Assembly (NCBI GenBank): GCA_012295275.1
Contig: CM022672.1
Location: forward strand, 34,782,001-34,846,000
DNA length: 64,000 bases
From: Chrysomallon squamiferum
Lineage: Eukaryota; Animalia; Mollusca
Reading direction: 5' to 3'
The translations under genes and the position numbers were made by a program. Of the stretch, positions 997 to 63,650 are shown piece by piece (the first letter of the stretch is position 1; each line of letters opens with the position of its first letter). Under the pieces are notes generated by a model. That model worked only from the letters and a program-made list of their open reading frames with translations. It was not told the origin of the DNA and made no database searches.

Positions 997-3900
997 TATG
1001 TCAGACTGGTGTGTATGGTTCTAACTGTGACAAGTCATGTAATAAACGACACTGTGCTGTTTCCTCTCCCTGTGACACACAGACTGGGTCTTGTACTGGA
1101 GGATGTCAAGCTGGTTGGAGTGGAACTGATTGTACTCAAGGTGTTTATAAAATACTTTTTTCTTGATCAAGCTTTTCTGAATTATTTCTTAATTAGCACA
1201 ATGAAATATATTAATGCAGCACAGTTGTACTAAACAACTACAAATATTAGTTTTCATTGTGGTTTTAGAGAACTGCTCTTTTTTTACGCAATTGATAACG
1301 TTAATAAAAAACATAAAGCAAAAGAAATATCCACAGATAATAAAGGAGAAAACTAGTTACACAATTACTAAATGCACTTTATCTTTTTTTTGTAGTTTCA
1401 GTGTAAATGACGAAACAAATGGATGAACATTTTATGTCTTTTTTCTTATATTTTATTATATTATATGTCTCCTAGATTAATAACTAATAAGATGTTTTTA
1501 ACAGTTTGTGATTTAAGTATTTATTTGTTTGCCATTTTATTTATTTATTTAGTTAGTTAGTTATTGTTTTAGGTTTTTTTTGTTGTGTTTTTCTGTTGTA
1601 TAGTATGATCTGTTTTACGAAACTGTCACAAAATGGTTCGCTGATTCTGGGACCAAATGAAACAAAAATGTAGAGGAAAGAAGATGAAAATTAAAACATG
1701 AAAACATAAAAACTGATTTCATATTAGGCTTAAGTCAAAGCATATTGTCTATAATTTATTTGCATTGTGTTTATGAAATAGAAATTACACGTGTAATGAG
1801 AGAAAAAAGTACTTTTGTACTGTTTTCATGCTATATACATGTTTAAAACTTTAAGATTATGAACAGAAATGAGATAACGTTATTTATTTTATGACAGTTA
1901 TAAGGTACTGGAATACACTGTTGGCAAAAGAAATATATTATTACATTAAGAAGAATATAACATTATATGTTTACAAATCCATTTTAATATGCAGACTGAC
2001 TAATATATTCCAACACAGATAATGAAACATTACTTTTATTTGGTTCTCTTCTTGTTTTGTAATCTTTCAGAATGTGATAAAACATATGGGACAAACTGTA
2101 ATTATAACTGCAATGACAGACACTGCAAAGACGATGACTCATCTTGTGATTCTAAAACTGGGAAATGTGTTGGAGGATGTAAACCTGGATGGTTGAATGC
2201 TACGTGTACTCAGAGTAAGTCAGCGTATAAAGCTATAATAAATATTATTTTGTACTCACACACACAAGAAAAATGAATCATAATTATTAACAAAGACATT
2301 GTTCTGCAGGTGAGTAGCTGAAATGGAAGATTTCGATATGATGTAATTGGAATATATGGTATCTGGTGCAAACAATGGGCTAAAGTTACTCTAAGCCAAA
2401 GATTGGTTTACTGAAGATCACAGTATAAGCTTTACTGAATTTGCAAAGGTTGCAATATAATGATAAGAACAACAAAAACAACAACAACAAAAAATTGATA
2501 ACAATAAATTGAAATGTTCATATGGTGGCAGCTTGTTTTCTCTTTCAGTACGTGTATATTCTTAACCCTACAAATGACGCCACATATATTACAGTATGTT
2601 GAAAAATAATTTCTTTCTTTGCTTTTCTTTTTCTTCTTTCTATTTCTGCCAGTATAGTTATATTTAAAGCTAAGCGACAAGGCAAACACAGTTATAAATA
2701 TTCATTACTATAATTTCATGACATTTTTATATTTTAGAATGTGATGAAGATTTCTATGGAGACGGGTGCAGTTTCTCATGTTTAAAAAGACAATGTTTTG
2801 AAAATCAGAACTGTTCTCACGAGACTGGAGAATGTGTTGATGGATGTTTGCCTGGTTGGGAAGGAATTTCTTGTACCAGTCGTGAGTTTATTCATATTTT
2901 TATTATAATAATAATAATAATAATAATAATAATAATAATAATAATAATAATAATAATAATAATAATAATAATAATTCTCTGAAGTGTGTATGCATCTTCT
3001 ACATTTCTTTACTTTTGTTACTCTTTTGCTGATAAAATGCGAAGATTAACTAAACATTTGAATTGTTCTTATTTCATTAAAAGGTGTGATAGCTCCACCT
3101 CTGTACGCCATCATTGGATCTGTCGTTGGATTCATCATTGTTCTTATTTTAGTTGTGGTTTTAGTTGTAATAATGAGGTTTGTTTATTTTATATTTAACA
3201 TACTCAGAAGTTTTTAAAAGCAATTGTTGCATAGATGTTTTCCATAATACATCTTTCCAAATAACTAAACATTTTGAAGAAATAATACATATGTTTTTAT
3301 ATTTTTGCTGCACTGATCTGTAAATTTCGCTATGACAAAAATAAAGGTACATCCGACTTATATTAGATATTTCTTCAAATGTATTGTCATTAATTCTTTA
3401 TTTTTTAATTTGATTTCATAAAACTTTAACAATGGTAAAGCAAAGATGAGTTACAAATGCAAATATATAACTTGTTAGAAGAAACATGTGATTGTATGTG
3501 TGTATGTAGGTATGTCCTACGTTTATATATATGTATCTATGGGTGTATGTACATTTTTTGGAGGTATGTATATTTGGAGGTATGTATGGAGGTACCCGTG
3601 TAGGTATTTAAGTTTCAACTTTTTATTTAATTATCAATATATATATATATATATATGTATGAATGTATATCTGCCGGTAAGAGTACGTTTATGTCATTAG
3701 AATATGTATATGGTATTATTCATTAATTAAATAATATTCATGTGTTTCTTTTTCTTTTTCTTTTTATTATTGTTATTTTTTTTTTTTTTTTTTTTTTTTT
3801 TTTTGCACACTGACATTATATTCACATTGACAATAAATTTCATATTTTCTTAACACCAAAGTTAATTATCTTAATTTGCTTTTCCAGACGACGAGGAAAA

Positions 3901-61000: not shown

Positions 61001-63650
61001 CATATATATATATATGTATTAGTGTATAAACTAAACAAAGTGTCTTTATATACCCATAGATTTATGTTCTTAAAAACGCAATTGAAATTTTGAGTTTAAA
61101 CTATATTTTAATATACAAATAAAACAAGTCTGTTGGGGTCTTTTCAGTATTTTCAAAATAATGTTCAAATATGAATTTATGGAAAATAATTATTTTATGT
61201 TTTAATAAAGTTAAGAAATAATATGATGTGTACAGTGGTACCTTGTCACAGAAAACAGAAACTATGTTTAAATTATTATTTGAACTGGTTGATACAGTTT
61301 TTTTCTCTGTCATTTTTATTTATGTTTCAGAAACTGCCAACCAAATTCACATCATCGTACGATGAATCACAGATAACTGAAAACCGAACAAAGAATAGAT
61401 ACCAAGGATACTACCCATGTATGTTGTATTCTCAGGTTTATGTGTCATTTTAATAGTTGTAGAAGGTATCCAGGGCAACATACGAGGCACCCATATTTCT
61501 TGTTTGTTTCATCCTCAAAGATTTATTATGAATTCAATATATACTGCCATTTCTAAAGAACCTCTGTGTACTGTTTGTTTGTTTGGTTTTGATTGGCGTT
61601 ATCAGGTAGCATGTCTGGTTTTATCTTATTCGTTTCTTGTTGGGTTTTGGGTTTTGTTTTATACAGTGGTATACACAATGTTAATCAGATGAAAATGTGT
61701 TTATTTTTAAGATGACAACAACAGAGTGGTTTTATCAGTGATACCGGGTATCTCACATTCTGATTACATCAACGCCAGTTATATTGATGTGAGTTCTTTA
61801 CTTATATTATTATATTTCATTTAATAGTCTACAGTTTTATTTCTTCTTAGTTATTCAAAGAATGCAGCGTTGTGTGTCTGTTTGACTGTTTGACTATATA
61901 TATATATATATATATATATAGAGAGAGAGAGAGAGAGAGAGAGAGAGAGAGAGAGAGAGAGAGAGAGAGAGAGAGAGAGAGAGAGAGAGAGAGAGAGAGA
62001 GAGAGAGAGAGATTTTAATTTTAAACATTATTTATATATTTTTTATTTCTATTAAATTATTTCTTTCTCAGTCATATGAAGAAAAGAATTACTTTATTGC
62101 AGCTCAGGGTAAGAGACATTTCTGTCTGCTAATTGAAAACATTAGAGAAAGCATTCGTATTTATTTCTATAAATAAAAAATTCTGAAAGTATCCATTACT
62201 TAAAAAAATAAAAAGTTAAATAAATATTAAATACAAATGAAAGTTATTATTATTATTGTTATTATTATTATTATTATTATTATTATTATTATTATTATTA
62301 TTATTATTATTATTATTATTATTATTGTTAGCACCAAACAGAAAGACTTTGCCAGATTTCTGGAGAATGATCTGGGAGAAGGATTGTGGAAACATCGTAA
62401 TGCTGACCAAACTTGTTGAAGCTAACAAAGTAAATATAATAATAATAGAATATTTTCTAGCCTACAAATGAAAATGAAATAAAAGTAAACAGAAAACTGC
62501 CTATTTTTCATTGGAAACTTTAATTTCTACTGATATTATGATTTATTGGCAAACTATATTGCTGCAGGATTTTGAAACAATATATATAGAGTTCTAGCTA
62601 ATAAACAGAAGAAAAAAAAAAGAAAATAAAAATTAACTTTTTCGTTTCTAGCAACTCTTACAATTATTAACATAGCAATTATCAAAATAACGAAATGTAG
62701 CAATTATATAAATATAAGGATTTTTTGATGAATCAACAACAACTATACTTGAAATATTTTGTGTTACTGGATTCCCTTTTAAGACTAAATGTGAACCATA
62801 CTGGTCAGACACAAAGACGATTAACATTGGAGCCTTCGCAATTTCTGTGACTGCAAAAGAGGAAAGAAGTGATTTCGTGTTTAGAAAGTTCTCCGTCACT
62901 CACAGAAAGGTTCTTATTAAAAAAAATTGTTAAAAATTATATTATATATATGTGTGTGTGTGCGAGAGAGAGAGAGAGAGAGAGAGAGAGAGAGAGAGAG
63001 AGAGAGAGAGAGAGAGAGAGAGAGAGAGAGAGAGAGAGAGAGAGAGAGAGAGAGAGAGAGAGAGAGAGAGAGAGAGGAGTACGAATACGTTTACATTTTA
63101 ATCTACGGTTTTATTTTATTTATTTTCCCTCAAATGTTTGATCTAGGTAACCGGTCTGTTATAAAAAAATAAAAAAATAAACATTATCTAAATTAATTAA
63201 TAAGTGTTTACTTTTGCTACCTTCGATCCATACATATTGATATATATCTGCGATACTTACAATGAAATCGGCAATTTTTTTAATTTAAAGTCCTCTTAAG
63301 AATTGCACATTTCAGTTTTAATGATATCTTAAAGGTTATTTGTATTCAAAGATTATTAGCATATGTAAAACAGTTATTTCATATATTCAGAGAACATAGT
63401 CAGTTACGTTTAATTTAAATGACTGGATAAAACCACAAAATATATCATAACAACAATATTTAATTTCAAATTTATTGTTGATTATTTTTATTTATGATTT
63501 ATAGTCTGGGAATTCAAAAACCTTTCAACAGTTCCACTTCATTTCGTGGCCAGATCACGGAGTCCCAAATGTTCATGACTTCGTACAATTTATGCTGAAA
63601 GTGAGAAAAACTAAACCTCTACTGCCTGGACCAGTAGTTGTACACTGCAG
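52096..63650 (+). CDS. Gene G (3'-partial): SP + EGF repeats (no lectin domain) + TM + protein tyrosine phosphatase; continues past the window
   Basis: SP 52096-52174. EGF [52927-53077 frameshifted], 55094-55240, 56174-56317, 56794-56940, 57057-57197, 57904-58047, 58536-58679, 59278-59412. TM 59768-59870. Juxtamembrane 60447-60532, 60694-60980. PTP 61331-61418 (KNRY), 61712-61788 (DYINAS), 62072-62108, 62332-62429 (DFWRMIWE), 62784-62909 (KCEPYW), 63505-63650 (WPDHGVP..VHCS). Confidence 0.9.
54108..54250 (+). pseudogene. Degenerate EGF pseudoexon, middle copy of a ~1.1-kb triplication
   Basis: Similar to 52927-53077 and 55094-55240, but with several indels and a lost donor (TGTACTTTTAATT instead of TGTACAG|GTAATT). 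Confidence 0.8.
55755..56215 (+). repeat. 72-bp splice-acceptor minisatellite, 6 acceptors plus one fragment (gene G)
   Basis: Acceptor AGs end at 55792, 55864, 55936, 56007, (56072), 56101 and 56173. Confidence 0.92.
56318..56471 (+). pseudogene. Acceptor-less EGF pseudoexon (CTQSVTYG type) fused directly behind a functional exon
   Basis: Homologous to exon 17525-17373 of C, with TGC changed to TGA (CNKS*). Its own donor CAAG|GTGTCT is retained. Confidence 0.88.

Follow-up and report, generated by a model that had tools for sequence, protein, structure and literature searches.

In the 64-kb stretch of Chrysomallon squamiferum DNA analysed here (the window), genes for predicted lectin/EGF type I receptors lie in a tandem cluster. 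Five gene models (A, C, E, F and G) and a 5' fragment (B) could be built with AG/GT at all used exons and no internal stop. A and G have a classical protein tyrosine phosphatase (PTP) end, C, E and F end in a tail of ∼100 amino acids, and no two of the window models have the same set of exons. Gene A (997-7992, plus strand) contains EGF exons T4, T11 and T12, a transmembrane (TM) exon of the PTP type (3084-3177, plus), a juxtamembrane part and the classical PTP domain D1, with PF00102 found on the matching exons of G; its 5' end lies upstream of the window and its 3' end inside an assembly gap of 200 N (7993-8192). Fragment B (8699-12789, minus) is cut by a gap and holds a signal exon and two lectin exons; given an inverted middle contig (8193-41798), we infer that it joins F, of which it is probably the 5' half. 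Gene C (15194-26532, minus) is complete (604 amino acids) and consists of a signal exon, an F-type-lectin-like domain over two exons (22060-23221, minus; F5/8 type C or fucolectin-like), six EGF exons (T1-T6), a tail-type TM exon (15973-16081, minus) whose helix has no charged residue, and a tail exon with four tyrosines (15194-15503, minus). Gene E (29777-39750, minus) comprises signal and lectin exons, EGF exons T1, T2, T4, T9 and T10, TM and tail; its stop is lost and the frame continues for 19 residues into a TA repeat. Gene F (42308-48190, plus), the 5' end of which lies in a second gap of 200 N (41799-41998), has EGF exons T7-T13, a tail-type TM (47328-47436, plus) and a tail ending in YEKK (47878-48190, plus). 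Finally, gene G (52096-63650, plus) has a signal exon (52096-52174, plus), EGF exons T3, T4, T7, T8, T11, T12 and T13, a PTP-type TM (59768-59870, plus), a juxtamembrane part and D1, and leaves the window at the catalytic Cys of this domain. It should be noted that the open frame is obtained by skipping two broken EGF exons in E and three in G (within 52927-56471, plus); in G, those at 52927-53078 and 54108-54252 are frameshifted, and that at 56322-56471 lacks an acceptor and contains a stop.

Genes A and G show the layout of receptor PTPs (RPTPs), that is, EGF repeats, a single TM and a classical PTP domain (PF00102), with a signal in G, and they match an RPTP of Gigantopelta aegis exon by exon. 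The KNRY and WPD loops could be identified in both. The Q loop of A is intact and its catalytic loop reads HCNAGIGRT, with Asn replacing Ser after the catalytic Cys (HCNAG versus HCSAG), and the PTP loop of G is visible up to HC at the window edge. The comparison with G. aegis covered D1, A stopping in the gap and G at the window edge, and gave 134-139 identical residues of 195 and a common clade (100/99). The best structure matches of the G. aegis PTP were RPTP epsilon, LAR and alpha. Six mollusc RPTPs carry YxN at their end, as does RPTP alpha; alpha, epsilon and CD45 RPTPs can activate Src kinases. In four RNA runs, 9-13% of the words from 55900-64000 were present, the expectation being 8.4% for the EGF exons alone and 18% for all exons, a share too small to bear on transcription of the PTP exons.

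With regard to the tail, the initial annotation had read a YVN and a YDKL-x10-YEKI motif. The former (a Grb2-type YxN; 15299-15307, minus, in C) is present in C, E and F, whereas the latter (15203-15256, minus, in C, its second half also fitting S-x-Y-x-x-I) is found in C and E, that is, in two of the three tails; F has lost the second motif, a one-codon insertion having turned it into YEKK. Whether the tail tyrosines are kept in relatives had been set beforehand as a refutation test, and all four were invariant across the three window tails and six relatives (4/4 Tyr columns versus 14/94 of all columns; Fisher p=0.0003), bearing in mind that HMMER retrieved the six relatives by means of a profile in which these tyrosines carry weight, and that these relatives are not independent. 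The two-tyrosine pattern occurs in eight of the nine tails, always with a spacer of 10. Such a tail had been called ITAM-like, which holds for the wider x6-12 pattern (seen in 0.1-0.8% of shuffles, per tail) but not for the consensus YxxL/I-x(6-9)-YxxL/I (PMC9546547), which none of the nine tails fits; nor could the x6-12 form be found for Draper in the available text of PMC8092387 and PMC4503800. YxN alone is at chance level (18-36% of shuffles). The terminal motif also fits the ITIM pattern [ILVS]xYxx[IVL], as S-x-Y-x-x-I, in eight of nine tails; Ser at -2 of the last tyrosine is invariant (9/9), and Y-x-x-L is conserved as well as that tyrosine.

No Pfam family matched the tail. NPxY and the EMI domain, the latter located at the N-terminus of Draper/CED-1/MEGF10, are absent from models C, E and F. 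The idea that the tail is a truncated PTP juxtamembrane part or C-terminus was rejected, as no homology beyond shuffles could be observed (C tail versus PTP juxtamembrane, 146-658 of 2000 shuffles scoring as high), and adaptor coupling via a charged TM residue was rejected because the TM helices of the window carry no charge. Neither the tail alignment nor the PTP juxtamembrane exon gave a match in word-index protein searches, a weak result considering that HMMER later gave the six tail relatives. One metagenome stretch (1 of 397 passing) was discarded: it has 67% GC and stops, and the match covers only the first eight residues. In the ESM Atlas, two unnamed clusters at 0.91-0.92 (one mostly Mollusca; low recognition score) and, at 0.78, a poxvirus family came up, as leads only. 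Transcription of the tail, a second of the refutation tests set beforehand, was confirmed: tail exons are present in RNA libraries, spliced RNA contigs join T2-T1 and T6-T5 of C, and F-specific letters in RNA contigs indicate that F-like tails are transcribed. No EGF-TM or TM-tail bridge was found among the RNA matches listed.

Genes C and E have the layout of the 1B receptors of the Biomphalaria LG5R cluster (signal, lectin, EGF, TM and short tail without domain). PF00754/PF22633 was detected on the lectin exon, and the fold matched five PDB entries, all of them F-type lectin domains. The cation motif h2DGx is present as VDGQ. The fucose triad of these lectins, H...RxDx4[RK] (PMC5712786), is incomplete in C and E, where His is replaced by Ser and RxDx4R is kept, and sugar binding, judging from these residues, may be different or lost. 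G has no lectin exons, its signal intron leading into a broken EGF exon; any lectin of A would sit upstream of the window, bases 1-159 of which match the intron following the lectin exon. A lectin is present in one G. aegis PTP protein (P0013). Thus, of the lectin/EGF kit proposed as common to both kinds, the EGF part stands, but the lectin is in no PTP gene visible in the window. A ligand common to both kinds is putative, given this absence and the different exon sets.

The EGF exons are indeed near-identical between the kinds: 12 cross-type pairs are 89.1-100% identical, with zero differences between A and E in T4 (144 nt) and between F and G in T7 (147 nt). F and G have T7, T8, T11, T12 and T13 in common, in the same order, with two more exons between them in F. 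The signal exon of G, previously described as the same as that of C and E, is homologous (88.6% at the nucleotide level, compared with 96.2% between C and E) but not identical. At the TM exon the genes switch to unrelated modules, as had been noted, with TM exons of the two kinds 47-51% alike in global alignment. Separate ectodomain and endodomain trees, as suggested by the initial annotation, gave a paired-receptor signature: the membrane-proximal EGFs of A and G (PTP) and F (tail) fall into a single clade (100/99) that excludes G. aegis, and for the ectodomains AU tests rejected a grouping of the tail genes (p=0.0005) as well as one of the PTP genes (p=6e-5). Since the ectodomains group by species although both endodomains have relatives in G. 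aegis, exons have been exchanged between the kinds, and this exchange postdates the split from Gigantopelta.

The nearest named relatives in G. aegis are XP_041357563.1 and XP_041379216.1 (tail) and XP_041357573.1 and XP_041357574.1 (RPTP), the names being automatic. Their EGF module order is as here, and the tail is conserved on EGF-TM proteins with its tyrosines invariant. Tail and PTP genes lie on one 102.9-Mb sequence with accession numbers near each other. The visible tail and PTP ectodomains are 55-62% identical in G. aegis, compared with 93% here. In the oyster Crassostrea virginica, one RPTP ectodomain is 73-78% identical to those of four proteins ending in YAEL-x8-YDxI, compared with 38-40% for five other mollusc RPTPs, and the likeness covers the entire ectodomain, lectin included. 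The oyster tail is unrelated to the window tail (331 of 2000 shuffles) and also has S-x-Y-x-x-L; on sequence grounds, the oyster pairing is an apparent second origin. Among the hallmarks of paired receptors, the window shows linked genes with similar ectodomains and different endodomains, and ectodomains homogenised across kinds are seen for the EGF exons here and in oyster, and not in G. aegis.

The tail module was joined at three non-homologous, messy breakpoints. The junction intron of C (16082-17372, minus) is pieced together from T6-T7 intron, T11-T12 intron including the start of T12, a T6-T7 piece in inverted orientation and a copy of T6 that has decayed. In E, a T11 exon stub cut in mid-exon (31030-31079, minus) lies at the junction to the tail module. 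The junction intron of F (45200-47327, plus) holds, in this order, 100 bp of G-like sequence, an element bounded by terminal inverted repeats (45518-46399) and a C-like tail-module intron with a T6-T7 intron piece. On account of this piece in the pre-TM intron (which scores 111, compared with 42 for the best of 1000 shuffles), a simply ancestral T13-TM-tail layout of F was dropped, and its junction is considered local despite the same layout in G. aegis. Synonymous divergence was 0.050 (17.5/346.8) across kinds, 0.064 (30/471.8) within kinds and 0.120 for the tail modules, and genes of one kind exchange exons as often with each other as with the other kind. In the window, pN/pS was 0.65 for tails versus 0.36 for PTP exons.

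Exon sharing is no proof of pairing, because neutral recombination in a tandem array would give the same outcome. The window could be a birth-and-death array in which free recombination among symmetric phase-1 EGF exons and repeated introns leaves neighbours with stalk exons in common, and tail receptors (scavenger- or engulfment-like) and RPTPs signal independently. Considering the three messy breakpoints and the equal exchange, neutral turnover suffices, and the similar same-type and cross-type divergence, broken exons, tandem acceptor repeats, inversions, different junctions, loss of the lectin from G and lack of homogenisation in G. aegis all agree with it, as do the domain loss and presence/absence variation described for Biomphalaria in the available part of PMC12297450. 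On the other hand, such an array leaves unexplained why linkage of the two kinds persists in two snails, in Biomphalaria and in an oyster, and why an oyster pair with its entire ectodomain and lectin in common independently made a two-tyrosine tail; we regard it as a somewhat unlikely account. It is far more doubtful that mis-joins, haplotigs, decaying pseudogenes or tail genes arising as truncated PTP genes lie behind the cluster. The two gaps, the 95% identity of B and C over 3 kb, the skipped exons of G and E, the lost stop of E and the odd catalytic loop of A would be in line with such an artefact; however, a single contig carries both F and G, whose introns have diverged, the tail has no homology to the PTP juxtamembrane part and is kept in G. 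aegis, and both spliced and tail RNA contigs exist.

With confidence approaching even, we favor the explanation that the two kinds are a paired switch acting, off and on, on one phosphotyrosine signal. A multivalent foreign or damaged surface would cluster both kinds, and a Src-family kinase would phosphorylate the tail, which might then dock Grb2 (through YxN) and Syk/Shark (through YxxL-x10-YxxI) and elicit a haemocyte response. A co-clustered PTP paralog would strip the tail phosphates itself, with no ITIM-SHP relay, while a threshold, continually retuned by exon shuffling, would follow from the ratio of the two kinds and their stalk length. Activating tails and inhibitory PTPs are a putative polarity, in view of the spacer outside x6-9, the invariant ITIM-type S-x-Y-x-x-I, the likeness to RPTP epsilon/LAR/alpha and the lack of a lectin in the visible PTP genes. 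A functional pair of opposite or cooperative polarity is another reading, with the terminal S-x-Y-x-x-I recruiting SHP-2/Corkscrew (inhibitory, Draper-II-like) and/or the RPTP activating Src-family kinases and so priming tail signalling. The invariant Ser at -2, the ITIM pattern in eight of nine tails, the S-x-Y-x-x-L of oyster, the likeness to RPTP epsilon, LAR and alpha and the YxN ends of mollusc RPTPs fit such a pair. We consider it unlikely, as Y-x-x-L is equally conserved with the spacer of 10 expected for a tandem-SH2 reader, and F lacks the last motif, yet F-like tails occur in RNA. SHP-2 also has tandem SH2 domains, so spacing does not decide the reader. The closest ectodomain partner of G is F, the very gene that has lost the second motif.

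Among vertebrate paired receptors such as KIR and Siglec, ectodomains have Ig or C-type lectin folds. Inhibition there depends on an ITIM that recruits SHP, and the activating member usually relies on an adaptor held by a charged TM residue, whereas in the window the receptor itself contains the phosphatase and no charge is present in the TM helices. CD300A/C resembles the window in its linked genes, with concerted, lineage-homogenised ectodomain evolution and divergent signalling ends, as far as the available text of PMC12447643 goes. Draper/CED-1/MEGF10 are likewise EGF-repeat type I receptors with a tyrosine tail, and, with one ectodomain between them, Draper-II (ITIM, Corkscrew) counteracts Draper-I (ITAM, Shark), according to the accessible sections of PMC8092387 and PMC4503800; the window genes differ in having no NPxY, no EMI and a lectin N-terminus, and in that the partner is encoded separately and brings a PTP of its own. 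Invertebrate clusters with ITAM/ITIM-type tails are also formed by Hydractinia Alr and Botryllus FF/FcoR, but they have Ig folds and a genetic link to allorecognition, and no intrinsic PTP is described in the available portions of PMC9546547 and PMC12065747; nothing in our analysis points to the allorecognition role previously offered as an option. ITAM-type signalling in oyster haemocytes is on record (PMC6994640, cited in the available part of PMC9546547).

The link between such gene clusters and parasite resistance in snails, raised in the initial annotation, is borne out by PMC12297450 and PMC13712769 (in the text available), and Biomphalaria is already known to have lectin/EGF receptors of both sorts, PTP-bearing and PTP-less, clustered together. 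LG5R, linked to schistosome resistance, holds in one cluster galactose-binding/fucolectin, EGF and TM receptors whose cytosolic part is either short (1B) or has PTP domains (1C); its main text, in the part available, describes the short tails as lacking identifiable domain signatures, has no mention of ITAM and does not test whether 1B and 1C have undergone exchange. The clustered SudRes1 RPTPs of Biomphalaria sudanica have GBD, MEGF, TM and tandem PTP, with EGF loss and copy variation, and the available main text (PMC12297450) describes no tyrosine-tail partner or pairing and does not mention ITAM. For these mollusc receptors we found the tyrosine tail, the cross-type exchange and the pairing idea nowhere in print. 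Somewhat more tentatively, molluscs may repeatedly (in the vent-snail lineage and in oysters, with unrelated tails) have built immune receptor pairs in which a PTP-bearing opponent, matched by exon exchange, replaces the ITIM, LG5R and SudRes1 being such pairs with the balance of kinds setting resistance. If this is true, the design would be that of paired receptors which dispense with an ITIM-SHP relay. The snail resistance loci hold both architectures without a mechanism and with short tails reported as featureless, and a conserved phosphotyrosine tail together with exon exchange with a PTP paralog would provide a testable model, covering both the reader and the eraser of the tail, for this large mollusc receptor family.

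The window, a stretch of eukaryotic DNA, has a GC content of about 29% and two 200-N gaps (7993..8192 and 41799..41998). Exons were mapped by hand from the sequence and then checked by script; in five gene models (A, C, E, F and G) and the 5' fragment B, AG/GT was present at all junctions used and no internal stop was found, with broken exons to be skipped in G (three) and E (two). Three genes end in a tail of ~100 residues with four tyrosines: C (15194..26532, minus strand; 604 aa, complete) encodes a signal, a lectin, EGF exons T1-T6, TM and tail; E (29777..39750, minus) a signal, a lectin, T1, T2, T4, T9, T10, TM and tail; and F (42308..48190, plus), whose start falls in a gap, T7-T13, TM and tail. 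The other two have a juxtamembrane exon and a first PTP domain (D1) after the TM, preceded by T4, T11 and T12 in A (997..7992, plus) and by T3, T4, T7, T8 and T11-T13 in G (52096..63650, plus). B (8699..12789, minus) comprises signal and lectin and is interrupted by a gap. T1-T13 are our own labels for 13 EGF exon types. EGF exon sets differ from gene to gene across the five models, and all EGF exons are phase 1-1, so in-frame gain, loss or skipping is possible. E lacks a stop codon and runs into a TA microsatellite (29777-29834), which adds a YI-repeat after the last motif.

The lectin exons match PF00754/PF22633 and five solved F-type lectin domains, with Ser in place of the His of the fucose triad (defined in PMC5712786). 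No lectin exon is present in G within the window, and those of A, if any, would be upstream of base 1. In A, the KNRY, WPD and Q loops are kept and the catalytic loop reads HCNAG, spanning an exon junction (7187-7188 and 7649); Asn directly after the Cys replaces the Ser found in G and the relatives from Gigantopelta aegis. The G sequence ends at the catalytic Cys (window edge). The juxtamembrane exon (4156-4442; 60694-60980) carries its own YVN and YYN, YxN forms the C-terminal end of six mollusc RPTPs, and PTP receptors may also dock Grb2.

The initial annotation had proposed one lectin/EGF ectodomain kit joined to either a PTP or an ITAM-like tail, and this observation is real, mostly as described. 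EGF exons common to both kinds form 12 cross-type pairs with 89.1-100% identity, whereas PTP-type and tail-type TM exons are 47-51% identical and the tail and PTP juxtamembrane region are unrelated. The five exons shared by F and G, the signal exon and the motifs were all present, except that the F tail ends in YEKK.

Among A, F and G, the T11-T13 modules show 93-94% identity, versus 48-63% to G. aegis T11-T12(-T13) rows and 59-64% to a T13-only row. They form one clade (100/99), and the AU test rejected both a tail-only clade (p=0.0005) and a PTP-only clade (p=6e-5; 8 rows, LG+G4). PTP D1 is about 70% identical to G. aegis (clade support 100/99), and sequence comparison indicates that both endodomains are older than the split from this snail. 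Since the ectodomain clade cuts across these older endodomain types, EGF exons have been exchanged between tail and PTP genes. Between genes of different kinds, synonymous divergence was 0.050; among genes of the same kind it was 0.064 (B counted in the latter group; T9 and PTP TM left out for unequal length). Several exons have zero synonymous divergence beside homologous flanks differing by 12% or more, which suggests exon-centred conversion. C carries the tail module behind T6, E within T11 and F behind T13, and each junction holds rearrangement debris.

A duplicated unit (13115-16545; 26868-31013; 46865-51533; copies 80-88% identical) comprises TM, tail, intergenic DNA and the promoter region of the next gene, so a signal exon follows each tail gene; G acquired such a post-tail start. 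Where the F intron turns from G-like to C-like lies an element of 880 bp (45518-46399), likely a non-autonomous DNA transposon, whose terminal inverted repeats measure 60 bp. The contig between the gaps (8193-41798) is probably inverted; in the flipped orientation every gene would lie head-to-tail on the same strand (A, E, C, B+F, G), and B would supply the 5' half that F lacks, exons T1-T6 falling in the gap. A 72-bp tandem repeat (930-1040; 18377-18597; 32443-33245; 55754-56223) duplicates the acceptor site of T4 together with the initial 43 nt of that exon; of its 21 matches, two are in A, three in C, ten in E and six in G. Splicing to an upstream copy would meet a stop, and the repeat may tune or spoil splicing. 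Two more minisatellites (37524-38099 and 48447-48844; units about 43/86 bp and about 55 bp) sit in an E intron and downstream of tail genes.

When 1.84 billion representatives were scanned with a profile built from the three tails, six relatives passed E<=0.001: two G. aegis EGF-TM-tail proteins and four unnamed ENA fragments, 32-40% identical to C. All four tyrosines are invariant in the nine rows, as are Leu in the first motif and, in the last, Ile and the Ser at -2. Of 94 well-filled columns in C plus the six relatives, 14 were invariant, including all four tyrosines (p=0.0003), an optimistic value since the matches were chosen by a profile rewarding these residues and are mutually related. 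YxxL-x10-YxxI was present in eight of nine tails (0.1-0.8% of 20,000 shuffles each). The ITAM consensus spacer is x6-9 (PMC9546547), and a spacer of 6-8 occurred in none of the nine; the last motif also fits the ITIM as defined in that paper in eight. YxN, frequent by chance, occupies one position in all nine. Within the window, pN/pS was 0.65 for the tail module versus 0.36 for PTP exons.

The tail exon and tail TM of C were covered in all three RNA runs aligned to C (one study, Logan contigs; 18, 22 and 25 of 30 bins); a fourth run covered 30/30. Two RNA records are spliced across the T6-T5 and T2-T1 introns of C, and none among the matches listed for C bridges EGF-TM or TM-tail. Three of the five listed tail differences in RNA were F-specific and two common to E and F, so F-like tails are among those transcribed. 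In RNA contigs about 85% identical, a T4-like exon is joined to lectin exon 2 (18400; 22101-22228), as in G. aegis RPTPs, and from these contigs additional family members exist outside the window. F and G lie on one contig, and it is very improbable that the architecture is an assembly artefact or the product of decaying pseudogenes.

For both kinds, the closest named relatives are from G. aegis, a vent snail, so the window probably derives from a related gastropod. In G. aegis, one 102.9-Mb sequence carries a tail gene together with two RPTPs and a MEGF with a short tail (XP_041357563/573/574/583), which suggests one cluster. The MEGF, XP_041357583.1 (P0008), represents a third kind: its proximal EGFs are the same, its short tail lacks the motifs, and it is a possible decoy. 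Over its first 548 residues, a Crassostrea virginica RPTP (P0012) shares 73-78% identity with four lectin-EGF-TM proteins that end in YAEL-x8-YDxI, versus 38-40% with five other mollusc RPTPs; it clusters with these tail-type proteins (96/96, 13-row tree), and the grouping of all tail types in one clade was rejected. Their tail is unrelated to that of the window. It should be noted that the proteins of both species are automatic gene models.

A paired switch between tail and co-clustered PTP appears the most likely reading, although we hold it tentatively. Grb2 binds YxN. Judging from motif classes, from which all signalling steps are inferred, a ligand would cluster both receptor kinds, a Src-family kinase would phosphorylate the tail, Grb2 and Syk/Shark would dock on it, and the PTP would remove the phosphate marks, a writer-reader-eraser logic reviewed in PMC8092387. 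The genome bears a stronger signature of pairing than the initial annotation could show. However, in G. aegis the visible tail ectodomains are only 55-62% identical to the PTP ectodomains, and in the window cross-type pairs are not favoured in the exchange; both points count against maintained pairing, and a by-product of array turnover is a possible, if less probable, explanation. The assumed polarity, activating tail and inhibitory PTP, proved weaker, and a reversed or cooperative arrangement, while rather unlikely, has several points in its favour. RPTP alpha, epsilon and CD45 are able to activate Src, and the best matches of the G. aegis PTP are RPTP epsilon, LAR and alpha. The end of the tail is an ITIM-type motif, and Draper-II works via such a motif (PMC4503800).

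MEGF is among the families expanded in G. aegis (PMC7895826), GBD/MEGF RPTP clusters were described in B. sudanica (PMC12297450), and in B. glabrata forms with and without PTP are co-clustered, their tails being called featureless (PMC13712769). In the literature searched, mainly open-access papers, we found none on a tyrosine-motif tail or tail/PTP pair in the mollusc MEGF/lectin family; the supplements of the two Biomphalaria papers may hold such tails. The genes of the window belong to a known mollusc receptor family, as a variant form. In other systems, ITAM/ITIM receptor clusters are known from Hydractinia and Botryllus (PMC9546547, PMC12065747), and ectodomain conversion from CD300A/C (PMC12447643).
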